Shown here piece by piece: positions 1,461 to 24,602 of a stretch of DNA of 24,602 nt. The translations under genes and the position numbers were made by a program. Within the stretch, counting starts at the first letter, position 1. The number at the start of each line of letters is the position of its first letter. Source of the stretch: an uncultured virus (IMG/VR IMGVR_UViG_3300029787_000013) (Duplodnaviria; Heunggongvirae; Uroviricota; Caudoviricetes); the IMG/VR virus record IMGVR_UViG_3300029787_000013. One strand, 5' to 3'. Below the pieces are notes generated by a model. The model ran no database searches and was not told the origin of the DNA. It worked only from the letters and a program-made list of their open reading frames with translations.

Positions 1461-1621
1461 ACAAAAAATAAAATATTTTTTTTAAATAATTGAGAATTGG
1501 ATACACCTCCCCCCTTGGAAATTAGTTTAATTTTGAATTTCTACTTACCGTTTTTAGCCTGCGTGGGTACATTTCTGTCAGCCTATAGTATTACTCCCAC
1601 CTAAGTTTTATATCAAAACAA
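1449..1621. repeat. 16-bp exact direct repeat TTTTATATCAAAACAA (1449-1464 and 1606-1621)
   Basis: Read directly from the sequence. Confidence 0.8.
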
Positions 1622-1728
1622 TTTTTGGAATTATTGGGGACAACCGTGACTAATTAGATTAGTTCGTAAACCCAACTTCTGACCCTATAACTACCTTTTG
1701 GCCCTCTAGGGTGATCTAAGATTCCAGT
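1505..1728 (-). ncRNA. Candidate two-domain structured ncRNA, family unassigned
   Basis: ORF-free, locally GC-richer stretch with nested complementary segments: 1531-36/1613-18, 1543-47/1602-06, 1563-67/1596-1600, an ACA-GAAA-UGU hairpin (1578-1569), 1626-31/1721-26, 1634-38/1671-75, 1649-54/1658-63 and 1682-87/1707-12. Confidence 0.5.
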
Positions 1729-1853
1729 GCAATATTACATAATACCTATGACAAATGCAAGGATTATAATAAAAATATATAAATAATTTGAAATATCTAT
1801 TTTCATATTGCAATATACAACTCTAATGTTAAACTAATATTACAACAGTATTA

Positions 1854-13484: not shown

Positions 13485-13908
13485 GGGAAAAATTAAAAAC
13501 GCAACTAAATGTACTTATAAGGGTATAAAATTTAGATCTAAATTAGAACTATTTACTTATAAACAATTAGAAAGCGCAGGAATTAAATCTATGTATGAAG
13601 AAAATACATATACACTTTTACCAGGATTTTATTTAGAGATGGATAGTTATGAACCAAGCAAACAAGGGTATAAAAATAATACCAAAAAAATAAGAGCGGT
13701 TACATACACACCAGATTTTGTAGATCCTAAAGGTAAATGGATAATAGAAGTTAAAGGATACGCTAATGATGTGTTTCCTATAAAATGGAAATTGTTTAAA
13801 TTATATTTATTAGAAAATGAAATGGATTGCACTTTGTTTTTACCTAAAAATCAAAAACAAGTTAAAGAAACTGTTGAACTTATAAAAAAATTAGAAAATG
13901 AGTATTAA
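13456..13908 (+). CDS. PD-(D/E)XK endonuclease (DUF1064 / T7 endonuclease I-like resolvase)
   Basis: 'FRSKLE', 'YTPDF', 'IIEVKG'. Confidence 0.85.
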   Translation: MRRVKRSPSKGKIKNATKCTYKGIKFRSKLELFTYKQLESAGIKSMYEENTYTLLPGFYLEMDSYEPSKQGYKNNTKKIRAVTYTPDFVDPKGKWIIEVKGYANDVFPIKWKLFKLYLLENEMDCTLFLPKNQKQVKETVELIKKLENEY

Positions 13909-16690
13909 AACTATTAATAAAGAAATCAGAGGCTCTGAAGGAATCGCTAAGCGAATCAATAAAGGAGCTGAAAAAATGGTTTTTGATATTTTACAATCTA
14001 CTCAATATTCTACACCTATTCCTTCAACCGTTAGAGAGTTAGTCACAAATGCATGTGATTCTCAACGTGAGAAAGAAATAGCAATAGAAATATTAAAAGG
14101 AGATAAAAAGATTGAAGACTATTACGTTAAAAGACATGGAGAAGCATATGAAGATAGTAATTTTGATCCTAGTTACTATGACTTAAATCATTTGGATCAG
14201 TACAATAACAAGGTTGATGTTTTATATGAACAAAGACCTGGTGTTGGATTTTGTGACACGTTTGCAGTAATTGATTATGGTGTAGGTATAGGAGAGAGAA
14301 GACTTGAAGGTGTTCTTGAGCTAGGATATTCTACCAAAAGAAATACTGCTGAAAATTTTGGAGCATTTGGTTTGGGCGCCAAGGTTGCATTGTCTACTGG
14401 TGTAGACTTTTATACTATTGAAACTATACATAATGGTATGAGATTTAAATGCAATTGTTATAATTATAAGACTGATTTTATTATACCTAAATTTGGTAAA
14501 AATGGAATTAATCCTCATATAACATTCTTAGATGGAACTAAAGTGTATTATGAAAAAACTACTAAGCAAAATTTTACTAAAATATCATTTGGTGTTAAGA
14601 AACACAATCGAAGTAAATTCTTTGACTCTATTGAAGAGCAACTAATTTATCTTGATAATGTTAATTGTAAAAGAGTTGATTATCTTGAAGATGGGTCTAT
14701 TGTCCGTGAGGAAGATGTAGATTTTCAAGCTAAAGTTTTACATAATTCAGAAAACTTAATTATTTCAGATAGTTATATATTTAATAGACCGCATATTGTG
14801 GTTGTTAGAGAAAAAGGAGCTAGTACTGGTATTAATTATGGGCACATAGATTTCCGTGAGTTAGAAATGGAGAGTCTATGGGGTGCTATTGCATTTAAAT
14901 GTCCTATTAGACAGAGTATGCATGATCCTGAAACTAATGAAGAGATAGTTATTCAAGAGGGTGTAGATGTTACTCCATCGAGAGAAAAAGTTATTTGGAA
15001 TGAAAAAACTAAAGCTTATGTCCAAGGTGTAATTAAAAGAGCTGCTGATGAAGCAAGTAAGATCATAGAAGAACAATTGCAAGAAAGCGATTATATTAAA
15101 TGGTTACATGCTTGTACTCAAGTTTTACATGATGCAGATAGTAATTCTACATTAGGAAGACTATCTAAAATTATAGATAAAACTGAGATAAAGCCCAAAT
15201 TTCCTGGTAATAAGAAACTTACTTTTCAAGCTCCTAAAACAGTGTTTAAACATTTAGATGTAAAAACACTTGTACAGGCGTATGATTATAAAGAAAAGAA
15301 AGATAAAATTGAAAGGAATGAATTAGATAAATGGGGAAATTGGAATCCAGAAGCTGTCTATCTTAAATCTACTATGGAAAGTTTTAATAGATTTAAAGAT
15401 ATGTATTTATTAGAATTGCATAGTGGTAAAGTAGTGGTTATAGATGAAGAAATGGATACTATTATACCAGATGCTATTACTAAGATGCAAAGCGGCCATG
15501 GAAAACAACAGGCTGTAGGTTTATTTAAGAATAGTCTTAATAAATCAAAACTTGTTTTTGATGCTATTAAAGCATCGCCAGAACTTAAAAGTTATGATGA
15601 TGTTGAAGTTCCTGAAGAATGGTTAGAAGCTCGTAAGACAGAAATAGCAGAGAAAGAAGAGTTAGCAAAATTTGATAATCTATCAGCTGCAGAGCGTAGA
15701 GAGATAGAAAAGAGAATGGTTGCTTATACTCTTAGGTTTGAAGAAAATCAAGAAAGATATGTTTGGGACAAAATTGAGCCTAAAACTAAAGATCTTATGT
15801 CTACTGAAAGAATCACTTATTATGGTACTAAAGAAGATGAATCACAGCTACAATTTGCAGCAATGACTTTATTTTGGCAAGCGCCTACTCAAAGAGATTT
15901 TTATCAAGAGCAAGATAATGATGATCGTGGGTGGAGACCTTTTAGTAATGCACATGAACCTGTATTCTTTTATGATCAAGCTCCTGTTAGATTTATGAAA
16001 ACTTGGGGATCTGAAAGTGGCGCTTATGAAAAATGGGCACAAACAGAAAATCTTAGAAATGAGGATATAACTCTTCCGCAATTGATTAGATTATCTGCAA
16101 AGTCAGTTAAGTTTGTTAAGCAAAATTCTAACTGTAAGCATATAAGTGAGTACTTTTTACAATTAAACGATAAAAATGAATATACTATGGACACACATTT
16201 AATAAGATGGTATACTGCTCGTAAATTAGATGAAATTAGAAACTATCGATTTATGACAGGACTAAAAGGAATTCATCCTGAACTATTTGAAAAATTCAAA
16301 AACTGTTTTGATATTAGAAACGATCATTATAATCAAAGATATGAGAGATCTAATCAATTAACTAGTGATGAATATAATGGAATTATATCACAAATAGATA
16401 AACTTGATGAGTTTCAAAGATTTTGCAAAGAAACGGATGATGAGAATCTTATTGCACAAAAAAGTAGAGAGCTTTTTGTTCTGGATATTCCAGGAGCAGA
16501 AGCTACAATACAAAGTGTAATAGATGATTATGAAGAAATCCAAGAATTTGGAGAAACTTTACAGCCTTTATTAAATGCAATACCAGACGTTCAAGATGAT
16601 CCTGATTTCACACCAGATGTGACACCAGAATTAGAAAAGGAACTACGTATATATTTAGAAGCTAAAGACAGATTAAAATGGGAAAAATAA
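13898..16690 (+). CDS. rIIA: rIIA-like protein with N-terminal GHKL (HATPase) domain
   Basis: GHKL motifs 'VRELVTNACDS', 'DYGVGI', 'YSTKR...FGAFGLGAK'; 'VDVTPSRE' is typical of rIIA; an rIIB-like gene lies two genes downstream. Confidence 0.85.
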   Translation: MSIKTINKEIRGSEGIAKRINKGAEKMVFDILQSTQYSTPIPSTVRELVTNACDSQREKEIAIEILKGDKKIEDYYVKRHGEAYEDSNFDPSYYDLNHLDQYNNKVDVLYEQRPGVGFCDTFAVIDYGVGIGERRLEGVLELGYSTKRNTAENFGAFGLGAKVALSTGVDFYTIETIHNGMRFKCNCYNYKTDFIIPKFGKNGINPHITFLDGTKVYYEKTTKQNFTKISFGVKKHNRSKFFDSIEEQLIYLDNVNCKRVDYLEDGSIVREEDVDFQAKVLHNSENLIISDSYIFNRPHIVVVREKGASTGINYGHIDFRELEMESLWGAIAFKCPIRQSMHDPETNEEIVIQEGVDVTPSREKVIWNEKTKAYVQGVIKRAADEASKIIEEQLQESDYIKWLHACTQVLHDADSNSTLGRLSKIIDKTEIKPKFPGNKKLTFQAPKTVFKHLDVKTLVQAYDYKEKKDKIERNELDKWGNWNPEAVYLKSTMESFNRFKDMYLLELHSGKVVVIDEEMDTIIPDAITKMQSGHGKQQAVGLFKNSLNKSKLVFDAIKASPELKSYDDVEVPEEWLEARKTEIAEKEELAKFDNLSAAERREIEKRMVAYTLRFEENQERYVWDKIEPKTKDLMSTERITYYGTKEDESQLQFAAMTLFWQAPTQRDFYQEQDNDDRGWRPFSNAHEPVFFYDQAPVRFMKTWGSESGAYEKWAQTENLRNEDITLPQLIRLSAKSVKFVKQNSNCKHISEYFLQLNDKNEYTMDTHLIRWYTARKLDEIRNYRFMTGLKGIHPELFEKFKNCFDIRNDHYNQRYERSNQLTSDEYNGIISQIDKLDEFQRFCKETDDENLIAQKSRELFVLDIPGAEATIQSVIDDYEEIQEFGETLQPLLNAIPDVQDDPDFTPDVTPELEKELRIYLEAKDRLKWEK

Positions 16691-17538
16691 CAAAAGACGT
16701 TAGAAAAACTTTTGTAATACGACCCTCTGGGAGATCTACAGATTATATATCTCCTAGTTTTGGTTATGGTTGCTTGTATGACTGTTCATACTGTTATATG
16801 AAGCGCCATAAACCTGATGGATTATCTATTGCAGTAAACCCACATGATATATTAACAGCTGTTAATGATCATGCTACGTTTGCTGTAGTAGATAAACCCA
16901 ATCAGACTCATGCTAAATATATTACCTATGATATTAGTTGCAACGAAGATTTTGCATTGCATGCTAAATATCATAAATGGGAATATATATTTGATTTTTT
17001 CAAAGAGCATGAACGAGCAATGGGTAGCTTTGCTACAAAGTACGTTAATCCAAATTTAATCAATTATGATCCGCAAGGAAAAATTAGAATAAGATTTAGT
17101 TTAATGCCTCAACATATGTCTGATTTACATGAGCCTCGTACCACACCTATTATTGATAGAATAAAAGCTATTGATGCATTTATAGATGCTGGATACGATG
17201 TACATGTAAATTATAGCCCTATTATAGTATATAAAGGATGGTTAGAAGACTATAAAGAAGTATTTAACATGATGAACGACTATATAGATTACAAAGAACA
17301 AGTATTAGCAGAATGTATTTTTCTAACACACGAAGAGAATAAACACTTAAAAAACTTACACAATAAACCATTAGCAGAGGAAGATTTATGGCAACCCAAG
17401 TTACAAGAGACAAAGAGATCTCAGTACGGAGGACTAAATATTAGATACAAGCTAAATTTAAAACGTAAGTTTATTAGAGAATTTGAACAGCTACATGGAG
17501 CTATGATTCCATGGAATAAAATTAGATATATTTTTTAA
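16678..17538 (+). CDS. splB: Spore photoproduct lyase-like radical SAM enzyme
   Basis: CxxxCxxC 'GCLYDCSYCYM'; 'YDISCNED', 'FATKY', 'RIRFSL', 'EPRTTPIIDRI', 'SPIIVYKGWLEDY', 'QYGG..IRY' and 'IRYIF' are colinear with Bacillus SplB motifs as recalled. Confidence 0.85.
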   Translation: MGKITKDVRKTFVIRPSGRSTDYISPSFGYGCLYDCSYCYMKRHKPDGLSIAVNPHDILTAVNDHATFAVVDKPNQTHAKYITYDISCNEDFALHAKYHKWEYIFDFFKEHERAMGSFATKYVNPNLINYDPQGKIRIRFSLMPQHMSDLHEPRTTPIIDRIKAIDAFIDAGYDVHVNYSPIIVYKGWLEDYKEVFNMMNDYIDYKEQVLAECIFLTHEENKHLKNLHNKPLAEEDLWQPKLQETKRSQYGGLNIRYKLNLKRKFIREFEQLHGAMIPWNKIRYIF

Positions 17539-17558
17539 TAATTAAAAACTAAAGTAAA

Positions 17559-18731
17559 ATGATTTCAATCAACGTTATTGACGACAAGATCTCAGGATCT
17601 TATGGGGATACCCCATTTTGTATAGACTTCGATGAGAAAGTTTATGCACAAATGCAAGAGTTAGCTAATATGGCTAACAAAGCAGAAACGGTTGAGGAAT
17701 ACGAAAGGTCTTTAAGATCTTTCGCTCCTCTAGCCGTGATGGATTACACAAAAACTGTAGAATCACAATGTGAATTTATTCATATAAATAAAGGAACAGG
17801 TGAATTCTTTTTAAAGCACAACGGTGTAGTTTCATCAATACCAATGCCTAAAGCATTAGTAGATAGAATATTTGAATCTATTGATAAAGGTGTTAGTTTT
17901 GACCCACTAGTTAAAATGTGGACTAGATGGTTAAGAAATACTATTCTTAGAAGAAAAACTGAAAAAGGTTTTGGAATGGATTTTTCTACACGATTTTTTA
18001 ATTTTGTAAACATGCAATATGTGCACCCTAAACTCAAAGAAGAGCTTATGGAAGAGCACGGTCTAAGTGAAGAAGCCGCTAGAAAAAGAGCGACGATGTA
18101 TCAAATGAAGATCACTAATGAAGGACTTTTAAATGGTTATAAAGTTTCTACTGAAATACTTGATAAGTATAATGCAGAAACTGGAGAAATAGAACCAAGA
18201 TATAAAAGAACCTTCAATCCTGATACAGGTGAAATTGATTCAGATGGTTTACCTGAAAATGTAGAAGATAGATTATTTCAACCTTCTGTAATGGGAAATG
18301 GTGGTAAAGCATTTTATTGTGAAGGACCAAATGGATACGGTGGAACCCCGCAACATTTTATTAAAGTTGGATGTACTCATAGACTAGCTAGTTGGGACGA
18401 CGTTAACACTAATGATACACGATCATGTGTTCCAGGTCTTCATGTAGGTGGTTTAAAGTATATCTCTTGGTACAGTGGTGAGATACACAATGTATTTATT
18501 GATCCTATGCATATTGGTGCAGTACCTGATGATGAAGATGGTGCGATCAGATGTTTGCAGTATTTTGTTCACTCATCTCTTGCAGGTGTAAATGGTTCTA
18601 TGTATCATAGTTCTAGTTATGCTGCGCAAACAGATGCAGAATGGGACTCAATGCGTGCAGAAGCTGTACAAGCTAAATCTGAATGTAAAGAAGCATGTGA
18701 TAAAGAAACAGCTGAATTAAATGCTTTATAA
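17559..18731 (+). CDS. rIIB: rIIB-like protein
   Basis: 'ITNEGLLNGYK' and C-terminal 'SCVPGLHVGGLKY...VFIDPMHIGAVP...GAIRCLQY' match the rIIB C-domain pattern (C..GLH...Y...V.P.D.V.VP....R...Y). Confidence 0.85.
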   Translation: MISINVIDDKISGSYGDTPFCIDFDEKVYAQMQELANMANKAETVEEYERSLRSFAPLAVMDYTKTVESQCEFIHINKGTGEFFLKHNGVVSSIPMPKALVDRIFESIDKGVSFDPLVKMWTRWLRNTILRRKTEKGFGMDFSTRFFNFVNMQYVHPKLKEELMEEHGLSEEAARKRATMYQMKITNEGLLNGYKVSTEILDKYNAETGEIEPRYKRTFNPDTGEIDSDGLPENVEDRLFQPSVMGNGGKAFYCEGPNGYGGTPQHFIKVGCTHRLASWDDVNTNDTRSCVPGLHVGGLKYISWYSGEIHNVFIDPMHIGAVPDDEDGAIRCLQYFVHSSLAGVNGSMYHSSSYAAQTDAEWDSMRAEAVQAKSECKEACDKETAELNAL

Positions 18732-20321: not shown

Positions 20322-20357
20322 CATTAAGGCTGCTGTTAATAGCAGTGGCCTTTAATG
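20322..20357. terminator. Hairpin between convergent transcription units (probable bidirectional terminator)
   Basis: CATTAAGG-CTGCTG-TTAA-TAGCAG-TGG-CCTTTAATG inverted repeat spanning the 30-bp gap between two stop codons. Confidence 0.65.
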
Positions 20358-23300
20358 TTCCATTTGTTTGTATTGTGGATATATTTCAAAATATGAAACA
20401 AATGAGGCAAGCCCTGGAAGAAATTTAAATGTATAGTATCCTGGAGGAGTTTTATCAGGACTATCATCTTCTCCAAACATAGAGTCTGTAAGTTCATCCA
20501 AAGAATTATCTGCAAACTTAATAAATTGGCCTCCCATAGATATTAATGGAACACCTGTAGATCTAGGAGATCCTATAAATTCTCTCCAATCTATAAAGAA
20601 AGCAACTTCACGATAGATTCTATTTAAATATCTATGTAATTGTCTACCAGCCCAAGTTTCTCTTATATCAATATCTCCATCATCATCCCAATCTCCTCCA
20701 ATAGCCATAATTGATAACATCAATAATATCACAGCTCTTACTTCAGATAAAGCCGCCCTTATATTGGCTCTTTTCAATTCCAAAAACTTTTTGAATTCAA
20801 TTTCATATTCAGTATCTCCTTTTTGGATTAATCTTTTAGATCCCTCTTCACCTTTCATAAATTTTGCTTCCCCAAACCTATTTGCTAAAAACTTATTAAA
20901 TTGCCCCTCAGCTATTTCCTGCTTTATATTAAAATTTGGACCGTATCCAAATGTTACTATATCTAATCCTATTTTCATTATATCTGCTCCTACTTGTTTT
21001 GCAGTTAAATGAAATGCTATTTCTGCTTTTATCCCATCTTCTATAGTTTCAAATGCTTTTTCTTTCCCGACATTAGCAAATAAACTTTTCCATGTACCTT
21101 CATTATAATGATCCATTATATAATCATATCTTAAATTTCCATATCTTTCTAAAGCTAACCCAGGTAACCATGATCTGTAATGCATCATTAGTTTTCCAAA
21201 CATACCTGAATGAATTAACATCTTATCGTCTTGATCCATTGTACCTTTAACACTTGTAGATTGAGCTCTTACCTTAGCTTTAAAACTTCTATAATTATCA
21301 AACTCTTGTTTATTTTTTATATCAAGGCTAACACCTTTAACTTTTACTTTATATCTATCTTTTACAGAAGTCCTACTCCAATTTTTAACTTCTTCCATTT
21401 CTATAGTATCCAATAAAGAATCTGTTCCTTCAGGTAAATCCTGCATCCTTTCTAATTTTCCTGTTTCAGGATGAATTCCATAATTTTGTGCCATAGACAC
21501 AGCTAATAAAGCATCAAGTCTATTATCTGCCCTTGCTAAAAACTCGAACCATCTATCATGCTGCATATATTTAGCACGTTTTGATGTAGCTAATAAATCA
21601 CCACGCCTTTGTCTTAGATCAATTAAACTAAAATCAAAATATTCTATTATAGCTCTAACTTTAGGATCAAGAGACATTATCATTTTATAAGCTTTATTTA
21701 ATTGTTTTTGATTATAGAATAATCCTTTAGACGCTTGAATTCTTAATCCCGCTTTACCTGCACCATATGCACCAATAGCCACAGGAATTTTTAAACCTAA
21801 AGCTGTTATACTTGCAAAATTTTTCAGTGCTAAAATACTTTTATTTCTACTTACATTAGTTCCCCACATTAGAACATCTTTTGTGCTCATATTCCTTCCA
21901 TATATTTCCATATCTACAAACTCATTAAAAGTTTCAGCAGTTGTTGATTTTGGAATAACCTGCGCTCTTTGTAATGTTTCCATTACTAAATCTCCTTTTT
22001 TATCTAAAACCTGTTCTTGAACAATTTTATCGTTTAATAAAGCTTCTAATACAGAAATTTGAGGAATAGCTTCAACATTAAATTTATATTGATGGGCTGC
22101 TACAGCTATTAAATATAGATTCTTACCTAATTCTTTACTTTTTAAAGTTCTATCTATCTTACCTGTTTTTTTATTTATTAACTCTCGTACAAATAATCTA
22201 GGCACATGTCTAATATACTCACCGTTAGTATCTGTCATTTGAAGACTTAAATCATGTTCTCTTACTTGAAGTAGATCCATAACAGATTCTGACATTTTTG
22301 ATGCACTAAATCCATCTTGGACCCAAGTATCTATTACATCTTTATGTACATTTGCAATAAACCCCGATCCTAAATCTTTACCAAATATATGGCTAACTTT
22401 CCACATTAAATTTCTATGATAATCATAAAAGTTTCTTAATGCGGGCACAGCTTGAATTCTTTTATAGTCTTCAGATAGATACTCAGCAGCAGCTCCTGAG
22501 ATAGTAGCTAATCCTGTAGGTTTTAAATTTCTTGCATTTAACCATGCAGAGTCATGATTTTTAAGATCCCATCTTTTTTCCCAAGCTGTTTTCTTTCTTT
22601 CCTTTTCTCTTGTGCTTTGGTTTGTAGCCTCAATTGCACGAAAAGCATTAGCTTTCCATTTTTCATAAACTTTATTATATTTTTCTAAATCTATTTGATA
22701 GTATTTTTTAATCCACTGTATTCCTTCTCTTTTCCCTGCTTCATCAACACGCGCTTTATTTAAAGCTTTTTCTCTATCAACTCCAAACTCTGGTCTATAT
22801 TTAGAATGTAAACGCATTCGTTTTTGATCAATTAAAAAATCATACACATTGGGACCATAAACACCTTGAGTCGCTCCATATGTTGTTAGTTCTTGCTCTA
22901 GCTCTTCTATTTCTACTGCAAGATCTTTAGAAATTTTATTGATTTGAGTATGATTTGTATTTACAATATCATGCAAATATCTTATAAAAGGATTATTATG
23001 CCTTGCTAACGATACAAAGTTTTTAGTTACCCAGTCTGTTGGAGTGTTAAAAGATTCTAAACTAAGAATACCTCTACTTTTAGCTCGATCTTTAGCTCTA
23101 GTAAGTAACTGTTCTTGAATAGCACTTAAAGTACGGTTAACTCTAGATGTAACTTCTATTTCTTTTTTTAATGTATCATATCGTTTTTTATCATACTTTT
23201 CTAAAAAGTTCAAATATTCATTCTGCCCTAAATAAGTTTGGTAGTATTTTAAGTCTTTATAAGTTGCAACTAGTTCTGTATCATCTATAAACTTTGTATT

Positions 23301-24602
23301 TGCTTTACCATCAATAAATTCTGGTTCACCTAAATTTTGAAGTCTATTAATAGTATTATTCATTTCTCTTAATGCAGTTCCAATATCGTAATTTACCTGC
23401 ATCTTACGTATAATAAGCTGTGAATCTTGAATTCTTTTTTTAAGGATCTGAGATTGCTTATAATCTGCTTCGTTTAATTCAGCTTTTAATTGTTGTAATC
23501 TTTTATTTTCTAATAAAATTAATTTTTCTAAACTAGTAATTACTTTTCCTTTTGTATCTCTTGGGCGTTCTCCTGCAACAGGTATAGGATCTAAAAAAGA
23601 TCTATAAGATTTAGACTCATGATCTAATCTTCTTTTTCTTGCTTCATTTTTCTCATACTTATTTAAAAAAGGCCCTCCTATTTGAAGATCGTCGATGATC
23701 CCTGTAGGTATTCCTTCTTTACTATATTTATATACTACAGATCCAGGTATAATTCTTGATTCTCTTATATCTTTTACACCATATTTTTTTATCAAAGTTT
23801 CTTTATAATCTGAAATTTGTATATCATATTGATCTATAGAATCTGCATAAAAATCTTTTAATATTTTATATCCTCCAGCTACTTTACGCGCCTGTGCTTT
23901 ATTTAAAGTACTTGGAGTTTTAAATTTATAATCATATATAGATGCTGTATTATCACTATATAAAATTAATACATCAATTGTACCTCCACTTTGTCTAGAT
24001 TCATTAACTACAAATTGTTCTGCTCTAAAAGCAAAATTTTTATTTTTATCAATTGTGTTTTGTGTGGCTCTTGCATGAGACAATAAATTACGAACAAGAC
24101 TTTGTAGTTCAGTAAAATGAGAAACACTTAAACCTGACTCAGCTAAAATAGTTTGTGGAGTTTTAGTAGATTTTTTTGTGAAATAATTTGCTAGATCTTG
24201 TAAAGTATTATGAAACATAGTTCCCCCCTTCATTCTAATCTCACTTATTGTTTTAAAATACTGTTCCTCTTCTTTAGTTCTTTGAATATGCCCATACTTT
24301 TTCATGTTATACAAAGTAACAGCATCACTAGTTCTATGTAATAAATGTTTATCTAAACGTTGATTATAATATCTTGTAATATATTCATCTTCTGTTAATT
24401 TTTGCCACTCAGGGTTATTTGCAGTGACAGCTTCTTCATCTATAATATAATCTTTAGCTATATCGTCTAGCTTTTGTAAAGTCTTTGCTCTAGGATCCAT
24501 TGTTTCTTCTGCTGCATAAAATGCAACATCTTCTTTAAAAACAGCGTCAGTTAATTTACCTTCAAATTTAGATTTTTTAACTAGATAATCCTGTAAAGAT
24601 TT
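20352..24602 (-). CDS. Giant, probably virion-injected protein (C-terminal part) with a RecB-like PD-(D/E)XK domain; 5' end outside the window
   Basis: The frame stays open from 24500 to the window edge (KSLQDYLVKK...AAEETMDPR), so it is >1416 aa. Nuclease motifs 'GTMFH', 'AEQFV', 'GTIDVL', 'IYDYK', 'QISDY'; helical remainder with a hydrophobic segment 'AVILLMLSIMAIGG'. Confidence 0.8.
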   Translation of the reverse strand, partial: KSLQDYLVKKSKFEGKLTDAVFKEDVAFYAAEETMDPRAKTLQKLDDIAKDYIIDEEAVTANNPEWQKLTEDEYITRYYNQRLDKHLLHRTSDAVTLYNMKKYGHIQRTKEEEQYFKTISEIRMKGGTMFHNTLQDLANYFTKKSTKTPQTILAESGLSVSHFTELQSLVRNLLSHARATQNTIDKNKNFAFRAEQFVVNESRQSGGTIDVLILYSDNTASIYDYKFKTPSTLNKAQARKVAGGYKILKDFYADSIDQYDIQISDYKETLIKKYGVKDIRESRIIPGSVVYKYSKEGIPTGIIDDLQIGGPFLNKYEKNEARKRRLDHESKSYRSFLDPIPVAGERPRDTKGKVITSLEKLILLENKRLQQLKAELNEADYKQSQILKKRIQDSQLIIRKMQVNYDIGTALREMNNTINRLQNLGEPEFIDGKANTKFIDDTELVATYKDLKYYQTYLGQNEYLNFLEKYDKKRYDTLKKEIEVTSRVNRTLSAIQEQLLTRAKDRAKSRGILSLESFNTPTDWVTKNFVSLARHNNPFIRYLHDIVNTNHTQINKISKDLAVEIEELEQELTTYGATQGVYGPNVYDFLIDQKRMRLHSKYRPEFGVDREKALNKARVDEAGKREGIQWIKKYYQIDLEKYNKVYEKWKANAFRAIEATNQSTREKERKKTAWEKRWDLKNHDSAWLNARNLKPTGLATISGAAAEYLSEDYKRIQAVPALRNFYDYHRNLMWKVSHIFGKDLGSGFIANVHKDVIDTWVQDGFSASKMSESVMDLLQVREHDLSLQMTDTNGEYIRHVPRLFVRELINKKTGKIDRTLKSKELGKNLYLIAVAAHQYKFNVEAIPQISVLEALLNDKIVQEQVLDKKGDLVMETLQRAQVIPKSTTAETFNEFVDMEIYGRNMSTKDVLMWGTNVSRNKSILALKNFASITALGLKIPVAIGAYGAGKAGLRIQASKGLFYNQKQLNKAYKMIMSLDPKVRAIIEYFDFSLIDLRQRRGDLLATSKRAKYMQHDRWFEFLARADNRLDALLAVSMAQNYGIHPETGKLERMQDLPEGTDSLLDTIEMEEVKNWSRTSVKDRYKVKVKGVSLDIKNKQEFDNYRSFKAKVRAQSTSVKGTMDQDDKMLIHSGMFGKLMMHYRSWLPGLALERYGNLRYDYIMDHYNEGTWKSLFANVGKEKAFETIEDGIKAEIAFHLTAKQVGADIMKIGLDIVTFGYGPNFNIKQEIAEGQFNKFLANRFGEAKFMKGEEGSKRLIQKGDTEYEIEFKKFLELKRANIRAALSEVRAVILLMLSIMAIGGDWDDDGDIDIRETWAGRQLHRYLNRIYREVAFFIDWREFIGSPRSTGVPLISMGGQFIKFADNSLDELTDSMFGEDDSPDKTPPGYYTFKFLPGLASFVSYFEIYPQYKQMEH

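Follow-up and report, generated by a model that had tools for sequence, protein, structure and literature searches.

The 24,602-nucleotide stretch of DNA analysed here (the window; IMG/VR record IMGVR_UViG_3300029787_000013, from an uncultured virus of the Caudoviricetes) carries on its minus strand, at 1497-1727, an element of ~231 nt that we hold with high confidence to be a genuine, selected RNA structure. Judged by sequence comparison, it is one member of a large, unnamed family of predicted two-domain RNAs, ~230-300 nt long, in uncultivated tailed phages. An earlier inspection of the same letters, made without database searches (the sequence-only reading), had proposed an unassigned minus-strand phage noncoding RNA (ncRNA) at this place; conservation, covariation in six helices and an excess of G-U over A-C combinations now bear this out. 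Two simpler observations from that inspection also stand: the stretch is a locally GC-richer island, with a GC content of 0.33-0.40 across 1501-1750 against 0.15-0.27 on both sides, and it is free of open reading frames (ORFs) in the sense that only 35-aa ORFs overlap it.

Compensatory changes preserve helices in both domains

Pairing was scored in three alignments. A5 covers domain 1 across the whole family in 73 distinct rows and was made with a covariance model (CM), leaning toward the model structure. A9 holds domain 1 of 12 distinct close relatives, aligned with MAFFT and not model-fitted, and A7 holds domain 2 of 23 window-type copies, also aligned with MAFFT. In A5, 93.2% of 1812 cells pair, compared with 72.0% after shuffling (0/500 shuffles reach the observed value) and 30-47% when slid by 1-3 columns. 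Both-sided changes occur in 17/29 pairs of this alignment, and its covariation score of 0.427 compares with 0.121 shuffled and at most 0.070 slid. In A9, 99.1% of cells pair and 6/29 pairs are compensatory. The corresponding values for A7 are 82.6% of cells paired, versus 71.8% shuffled (0/500) and 38-55% slid, with both-sided changes in 12/24 pairs, a count that did not exceed the controls clearly.

Domain 1 (1727-1626; all coordinates of the RNA refer to the minus strand) is built from P1, P2 and P3. P1, which closes the domain by pairing UGGAAU (1721-1726) with AUUCCA (1626-1631), covaries at 6/6 pairs with 4-5 pair types each among the 73 distinct copies, and an optional hairpin, P1a, which is absent from the window, covaries at 4/4. 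P2 joins ACCCUA to UAGGGU (1712-1707 with 1687-1682) around a GAG/AGUUA internal loop and a GCC-AAAA-GGU hairpin (1702-1693). Family-wide, 6/10 of the P2 pairs covary; the four ACCC/GGGU pairs do not, three being invariant and one changing on one side, and within the window group 100% of the P2 cells pair. The junction CAGAA (1677-1681) lies within the word GGGUCAGAAGUUGGGUU and is followed by P3 (GUUGGG/CCCAAU, 1676-1671 with 1638-1633), which surrounds P3b (1666-1665 with 1646-1645) and the P3a hairpin (1663-1658 with 1654-1649). The six pairs of outer P3 show no both-sided change: four are invariant, and two vary from U-A to U-G or from G-C to G-U. For P3a and P3b, 4/8 pairs covary among the 12 close relatives of A9. 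A resemblance of P3 to part of 16S rRNA was considered and discarded, the Bacteroidota sequence being different and P3 simply covarying in one divergent copy (locus L049, described below).

The linker AAAAAUUG (1625-1619) joins domain 1 to domain 2 (1618-1531), which is closed by a long-range helix, UUUUGA/UCAAAA (1618-1613 with 1536-1531). All six pairs of this helix covary in the 23 window-type copies, with four A7 rows (the L069 group) that are misaligned at this point retained and scored as unpaired there, and the same helix can be read by eye in 42 compact-type copies. P1 and the long-range helix coincide exactly with the two domain limits, 1626-1726 and 1531-1618, drawn in the sequence-only reading. 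Within domain 2, H4 (CUUA/UAAG, 1605-1602 with 1547-1544; A1606-U1543 is a possible, uncounted extension) contains the pair 28-84, which is A-U in 16 copies and G-C in 7. It encloses H4a (GUGGG/CCCAC, 1600-1596 with 1567-1563), in which 100% of cells pair and 3/5 pairs covary across the 23 copies, together with the stretch CUGACAGAAAUGU (1581-1569). In all, six helices distributed over the two domains show covariation.

The 3' part of the RNA (1530-1497) holds AAGGGG (1516-1511), followed by GGAGG and the tail UGUAUCCAA (1505-1497), so that the RNA ends in AAGGGG...UAUCCAA. AAGGGG is invariant in 23/23 window-type copies, which gives substance to the G-rich 3' tract noted earlier; in compact-type copies, (Y)CAGGG and a ..UAUAUCYAA tail recur. 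Two small hairpins of the sequence-only reading fared less well: in ACA-GAAA-UGU the middle pair is unpaired in 12/23 relatives, though AGAAA is invariant, and for the 3' hairpin UUUCC/GGAGG the share of paired cells is only 49.6%. The cross-domain pairing suggested between GUCAG (1683-1679) and CUGAC (1581-1577) is possible, as both segments are present, and the fifth position of CUGAC pairs in only 11/23 window-type copies. Because GUCAG lies inside the search word, all fetched copies carry it and no covariation signal is possible there. By eye, pairing of the tail with the GAUAUA junction, the P3 AUAG loop or the ribosome-binding site shows no consistent covariation.

Across all subtypes the core comprises AUCACCC, GGGUCAGAAGUUGGGUU, GUCCCCAAUA, AAAAUUG, AUAUAAA, GGGAG, GAAAUU, UUAAA, (Y)CAGGG and the tail, whereas the subtypes differ in their P2, P3 and H4 inserts. 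In our judgement, a core that stays invariant while the periphery varies is characteristic of RNAs that adopt a tertiary fold.

The substitutions also carry information on the strand. The counted A7 pairs hold 16 G-U/U-G cells versus 5 A-C/C-A cells, and those of A5 hold 137 versus 17, although the A5 counts of pairs and of G-U and A-C cells alike are somewhat inflated because CM-made alignments favour the model structure. Read on the opposite strand, A5 would pair in 86.6% of cells instead of 93.2%, and the counted pairs of A7 in 89.0% instead of 91.6%. Given the excess of G-U over A-C and a promoter-like box upstream, we therefore read the RNA from the minus strand. Folding energy gives no support: the minimum free energy of 1495-1745 is no better than that of dinucleotide shuffles on either strand (z +1.43 minus, +1.05 plus), a result that by the criteria of the sequence-only reading would count against the element. 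We do not hold this against the structure, because covariation is the stronger test.

A widespread family in uncultivated phages

The element is conserved at homologous loci, as the earlier proposal implied. Between the window and 12 distinct close relatives, identity is 93.7% over the element itself (1497-1727) and 86.9% over the 72 promoter-proximal nucleotides (1728-1799). It amounts to 64.8% farther upstream of 1799, 65.9% in the spacer toward the groES-like gene and 52.5% at the start of that gene, the last figure being lowered by relatives that have another gene there.

The first relatives were three viral contigs reached via the groES protein, whose spacers align with the window. Further copies were retrieved from viral contigs by four pattern scans that used words of the element, and the word GGGTCAGAAGTTGGGTT was scanned once in metagenome contigs (>119 loci) and once in bacterial genome contigs (33 loci). 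Invariance of GGGUCAGAAGUUGGGUU in the metagenome and bacterial scans is thus by construction, since it belongs to the search pattern; the same word is also present in all viral copies fetched with other patterns.

A covariance model, R1, was built from 19 distant compact-type copies with the window excluded and with a hand-written structure (126 positions, 29 pairs). It matches minus-strand positions 1617-1726 of the window along its full length (model positions 1-126 of 126), with 51.1 bits and E=1.6e-9. Altogether R1 matches 85 places in 100 sources and 40 in 80 further sources (125 in 180), which by our own count correspond to 95/119 metagenome loci and 27/28 viral or window sources. In the bacterial genome contigs, R1 matches 3/33 loci (L191, from a Bacteroidetes metagenome-assembled genome, L199 and L212); the other 30 bacterial loci with the 17-mer are, by our estimate, about the number expected by chance and were used as a negative control. 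R1 finds exactly one copy in each of five viral records (5/5), three of which are rated at least 90% complete and are 83-91 kb long. For the DNA polymerase of the window, isolate relatives reach at most 32% identity, and several of them are Crassvirales.

A broader version of the model, R2, finds a divergent copy in the human-gut Crassvirales genome MT774387.1 (cr111_1) at 81784-81898 (L222:1501-1615; 31.6 bits, E=9.4e-5), and the predicted family thereby includes at least one Crassvirales member. This copy sits within 1.8 kb left unannotated between a tRNA gene and small hypothetical genes, and a tail protein gene follows. By eye, its junction word is altered, and P3 is apparently altered along with it. 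R2 finds no copy in crAss001, phi14:2, cr108_1 or IAS virus, where its first-look filter may miss divergent copies, and blastn against GenBank phages gives no match for the window spacer, a 12-kb piece of the window or three other subtypes.

The locus L049 (minus strand, 1090-1446) has only the 19-mer GGCTAAAAACGGTAAGTAG in common with the window. By eye its helices are the same although their letters have changed (UCGGA/UCCGA where the window has UUGGG/CCCAA), and it has a long-range helix of its own. Because R1 misses L049 despite these alike helices, the family is probably wider than counted.

Known RNA families and earlier descriptions

The sequence-only reading did not recognise the element as tRNA, tmRNA, RNase P or an intron, and no tRNA, tmRNA or Rfam family matches it. 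With Rfam 15 (4227 models, including tRNA, tmRNA, RNase P, 6S, group I/II introns, riboswitches, phi29 pRNA and known phage motifs), the whole window gives 0 matches at the gathering score, the region 1495-1745 gives no match at E<=10, and the element in 20 diverse homologous loci gives no match at E<=0.1. ARAGORN reports 0 tRNA or tmRNA genes in the window.

We consider it rather improbable that the RNA has already been described under another name, for example among human-microbiome candidates or among the 10,006 structured RNAs that PMC10690425 predicted from IMG/VR. The family is abundant in IMG/VR contigs, the very data set screened in that study, which speaks for such an overlap. Nonetheless, no Rfam 15 model matches the element, and the core word and five sample numbers from contig names are absent from four supplementary tables of PMC10690425. 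The accessible text of that article mentions neither Bacteroid, Flavobacter nor chaperon, and the core sequence was not found in the literature text searched, one unrelated primer excepted. Two 2026 preprints on intergenic RNA discovery describe other elements in their accessible portions, and a literature search combining crAss-like phages with leader or non-coding RNA gave nothing specific among the matches listed. The RNA arrays of UG27 reverse transcriptases were considered and set aside, those being arrays beside a reverse-transcriptase gene, whereas the element here is a single copy in a window that holds no reverse-transcriptase domain.

Promoter-like signals and transcript evidence

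The window is phage DNA rich in A+T; over its first 4 kb, the GC content of 100-base windows is mostly 16-38%. Its plus strand carries genes for DNA polymerase A, helicases, DnaB, a Sak4-like protein, primase, resolvase, rIIA/rIIB-like proteins and an exonuclease. At the left end, on the minus strand, lie a groES-like co-chaperonin gene (1119-1406; PF00166, E=1.6e-6; phrog_3188, E=1.2e-11), which is the first same-strand gene downstream of the RNA, and then small ORFs. The RNA sits in the 580-nt spacer between these divergent blocks of plus-strand replication genes and minus-strand groES.

The near-consensus -7 element claimed in the sequence-only reading is present as the promoter-like box TAATATTG at 1730-1737 (minus strand), 3 nt before P1, and is kept in 14/14 close relatives. 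It resembles TAnnTTTG, which we take to be the Bacteroidota -7 consensus. Among 100 listed copies, a TATATT or TTTG box just before the picked P1 occurs in most, in a survey whose script-made P1 picks are partly wrong. A separate promoter motif for groES, also claimed earlier, is found as TATATTTG at 1431-1438 on the minus strand and is kept in relatives that have groES at that place. A terminator scan of 1100-2500 finds no terminator-like site on the minus strand between 1497 and 1407.

In a search of sequencing runs, 15 DNA-type runs hold the element stretch, and four runs recorded as RNA, plus one guessed to be RNA, carry a small share of its words. From the four RNA runs, three short contigs of relatives cover 1497-1677, 1571-1785 and 1601-1767 at a depth of 2-3; these contigs define neither ends nor strand, may reflect DNA carry-over and come from runs selected with the element stretch itself. 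The high RNA-run depth at 1444-1491 is low-complexity A/T sequence.

Genes downstream of the RNA

The RNA is commonly close to the next gene on its strand. In 57/110 distinct copies, including the window-type relatives L003, L012, L014 and L176, the next same-strand ATG-ORF begins at most 30 nt from the called 3' end. The 3' end was called heuristically, which succeeded for 95 copies; 85 of these have an ORF no more than 200 nt away. In the window itself, the nearest start codon is 94 nt from the called 3' end, behind its own promoter box.

What follows the RNA varies with the subtype. In the compact type, 7/7 viral loci have the order RNA, a 54-67-aa acidic protein and a TerS-like gene (PF03592, phrog_51), and in many compact-type copies GGAG-type ribosome-binding motifs come directly after the tail. 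The TerS hidden Markov model (HMM) matches 36 loci in all, its position relative to the small ORF having been compared for some of them only. In the window-type locus L003, the RNA is followed by a 56-aa ORF, groES, ~10 small ORFs, an HNH-type endonuclease and the start of the large terminase. A complete relative of 87.9 kb, to which L217 belongs, has its DNA polymerase on the other side of the RNA; here a single strand carries the RNA, a 184-aa ORF, GroES, small ORFs, an endonuclease, TerL (E=1.3e-135) and the portal gene (E=6.5e-129). In window-type genomes the terminase genes are 3-4 kb from the RNA. Elsewhere, an amidase or a holin-like gene comes after some of the copies. In every copy whose neighbours were examined, same-strand virion, packaging or lysis genes follow the RNA.

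The 54-67-aa acidic proteins (L027:1375-1560, L075:791-952 and ~40 other loci) end in ...LG(I/L)(A/S/T), some with an N-terminal CPxC. The compact-type protein has no match in Pfam, PHROG or the Atlas, and its HMM has no match in the window. Its AlphaFold model shows four strands and a helix (predicted local distance difference test score 76.6), with no PDB match at E<=0.001. Immediately past the RNA tail, at ~1496, the window differs by a 175-nt indel from L003 (2754-2921) and L001. The indel of L003 and L001 contains the 56-aa ORF; L176 has an alike-looking ORF cut by the locus end, and the window and L002 have none. Homology of these ORFs to the small compact-type protein was dropped, as the HMM of that protein, rebuilt without L003, matches the ORF in none of L003, L001 and L176.

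A candidate leader of late operons and its rivals

Tentatively, and with slightly less than even confidence, we favour a reading of these sequence data in which the RNA would be the promoter-proximal leader of a late transcription unit (morphogenesis, packaging, lysis) and would act in cis as RNA. The leader position is suggested by the next ORF lying at most 30 nt from the tail in 57/110 copies and by the lack of a terminator-like site before groES. The late-operon context is suggested by the terminase, portal, TerS-like, amidase, holin-like and tail genes that follow the copies. Transcription would start a few bases after the host-type promoter box at 1737-1730 (a predicted start), and the transcript would fold into the multi-helix domain 1, with P1, P2 and P3, and into domain 2 closed by the long-range helix. 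Placed at the divergent junction, it may then license or tune expression of the long late unit. It could do so by acting on the transcribing RNA polymerase, in the manner of the processivity or antitermination conferred by put RNAs, or else by binding a phage or host factor or a small ligand that opens the adjacent ribosome-binding region.

Several observations weigh against this reading. The mechanism of such a leader would be read from position only, and its late timing from gene content. Of the 95 copies whose 3' end was called, 10 have no ORF within 200 nt. Between the RNA and groES, the window and its closest relatives have an A/T-rich spacer of 79-95 nt and the separate TATATTTG box, an arrangement that fits a stand-alone RNA as well as a leader. 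Two of the three RNA-library contigs extend 40-58 nt upstream of the proposed start. In L020, a 90.8-kb viral record with direct terminal repeats, the copy precedes three tRNA genes (L020:1987-2379) on the same strand, 500-1100 nt downstream. The downstream genes are heterogeneous, unlike those of most riboswitch classes. No terminator/anti-terminator alternative was found, and by eye there is no conserved pairing that would sequester the Shine-Dalgarno sequence.

Some of these points speak for the main rival, which we regard as possible but unlikely: a stable ncRNA or ribonucleoprotein component acting in trans, with its own promoter and perhaps cut from the operon transcript. Such an RNA would act on a host or phage machine, with RNA polymerase, the ribosome, an RNase and a defence system as candidates and, if phi29 pRNA is taken as a guide, the packaging motor as another. 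The spacer in the window group and its groES box, the heterogeneity of the downstream genes and the copies without an adjacent ORF all agree with this explanation. The single-stranded junctions are very highly conserved, far beyond what the helices need, and the size, multi-domain build and invariant core with variable peripheral helices resemble ornate RNAs. The recurrent linkage to terminase genes and the co-inherited small protein of unknown fold after the compact-type RNA point the same way, but that protein is missing from the window and the Rfam model of phi29 pRNA has no match. No processing site is known for the RNA, no terminator-like site follows it in the window, and the tail abuts the next start codon in 57/110 copies, often with GGAG in between, which is the layout of a 5' untranslated region (5' UTR). 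The claim of the sequence-only reading that the RNA is an independent transcript and not a leader is not established by these data: a ~90-nt spacer and the separate groES box do follow the RNA in the window, whereas 57/110 tails abut an ORF and the scan gives no terminator-like site from 1497 to 1407.

A riboswitch sensing a metabolite or ion and gating translation of the abutting ORF would be a special form of cis action, not an addition to it, and seems improbable. Its multi-helix junction with invariant junction nucleotides, the 5' UTR position with the tail 0-30 nt from a start codon in 57/110 copies and the GGAG-type motifs after many compact-type tails would suit such a device. However, the genes downstream share no metabolic theme (a small unknown protein with TerS, amidase, holin-like, GroES, tail protein), no known riboswitch model matches, and by eye no conserved alternative pairing with the ribosome-binding site is apparent; in the window, 94 nt and a separate promoter box lie between the called 3' end and the nearest start codon. 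Far less probable still is a site acting at the level of DNA, whether a packaging signal (pac/cos) near the terminase genes or an origin at the junction of the replication module, as the sequence-only reading had offered in the alternative. One copy per genome, very high sequence conservation, a place beside TerS in the compact type and a place at the border of the replication module in the window would all be in keeping with such a site. Yet six helices keep pairing through compensatory changes, and the G-U over A-C ratio of 137 to 17 is strand-specific and RNA-like. DNA readings fit poorly because compensatory changes with wobble pairs are not expected for a protein-bound DNA site. Moreover, in the only terminal-repeat record (L020) the element sits at 70.8 kb in a total of 90.8 kb and so 20 kb short of the end, and in window-type genomes the terminase genes are 3-4 kb off.

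A bolder reading would make the RNA a self-sufficient device for late expression or packaging, common to Crassvirales-like and marine phages; we give this only a small chance. It could be a large put-like element providing protein-free terminator resistance to the host RNA polymerase across a 15-20-kb virion-gene operon, or a pRNA-like part of the terminase motor in phages equipped with TerS and TerL as well. If true, neither form would have a precedent beyond one narrow phage group, and the RNA would be the first regulatory one known for crAss-like phages. We found no published RNA at the start of late genes for these phages.

More than 100 distinct copies with this much covariation are a rare find, and large structured RNA classes have often proved to be ribozymes, riboswitches or parts of molecular machines. 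In uncultivated marine phages of ~85-90 kb, the RNA appears to stand where the block of virion and packaging genes begins. It offers a defined sequence with testable helices for asking how late genes are switched on, and it may serve as a sequence marker for late-operon starts in metagenomic phage contigs.

Comparison with known phage RNAs

The put RNAs of HK022 mediate factor-independent antitermination as RNA; they are ~70 nt long, consist of two simple stem-loops and lie in the early operons of a lambdoid coliphage. Like them, the present RNA is promoter-proximal, has two folded parts, stands at the head of long phage operons and would work regardless of the genes that follow. In contrast, it is 230-300 nt long, with junctions and a long-range helix, and heads virion-gene operons. 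A put-like action on RNA polymerase is something we infer purely by analogy, position being the only argument for it.

phi29-like phages lack TerS, and their pRNA, which packaging requires, forms a ring on the prohead connector by loop-loop pairing between molecules. The phi29 pRNA (RF00044) is likewise phage-encoded, two-domain, of similar size and tied to packaging, and the present family is repeatedly linked to terminase genes; that linkage is the only hint at what would, by analogy, be a pRNA-like role. The RF00044 model, however, matches neither the window region (E<=10) nor the 20 loci (E<=0.1).

The late leader of the lambda-type PR' promoter (6S RNA, and StxS of Shiga-toxin phages, PMC7547250) is likewise a short RNA transcribed from where the late operon begins, ahead of the lysis and packaging genes, and it can have a regulatory-RNA life of its own. 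Such leaders end at a strong intrinsic terminator, overridden by an antiterminator protein, depend on protein Q acting at a DNA site and have no conserved multi-domain fold; the present RNA has no terminator-like site at 1497-1407.

To our knowledge, no RNA of the GOLLD, ROOL or raiA type marks the start of a late operon. These ornate orphan RNAs are alike in being complex, conserved folds that comparative genomics has brought to light, in many cases in phages or prophages. They also share an invariant core, variable peripheral helices and an unassigned function. Unlike the present RNA, they form separate Rfam families, none of which matches, and most are larger. The GP20 and GP32 candidates of PMC10690425 are computed structures found consistently upstream of phage genes in IMG/VR contigs, each with one gene family, whereas the present family precedes several unrelated first genes.

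Further features of the window

Upstream of the promoter region of the RNA, 1865-1960 holds a semi-conserved block (GGTGGGGTG ... CACACGCTCA), after which come a short G+C hairpin (1876-1888) and an A/T run that are terminator-like on both strands. Farther on, the plus-strand ORF at 1995-2360 (121 aa) has 37-47% GC in 100-base windows, against 16-38% for most of the first 4 kb, and a terminator-like hairpin at its end (2348-2370). It matches no Pfam or PHROG family, has no relative by pattern search and is missing from the aligned relatives; it looks like a recently acquired gene. A minus-strand ORF of >1416 aa (20352-24602), with no Pfam or PHROG match, extends past the window end. At 13898-18731, the rIIA-like and rIIB-like genes lie around a gene resembling spore photoproduct lyase and radical-SAM proteins (PF20903, E=2e-24).

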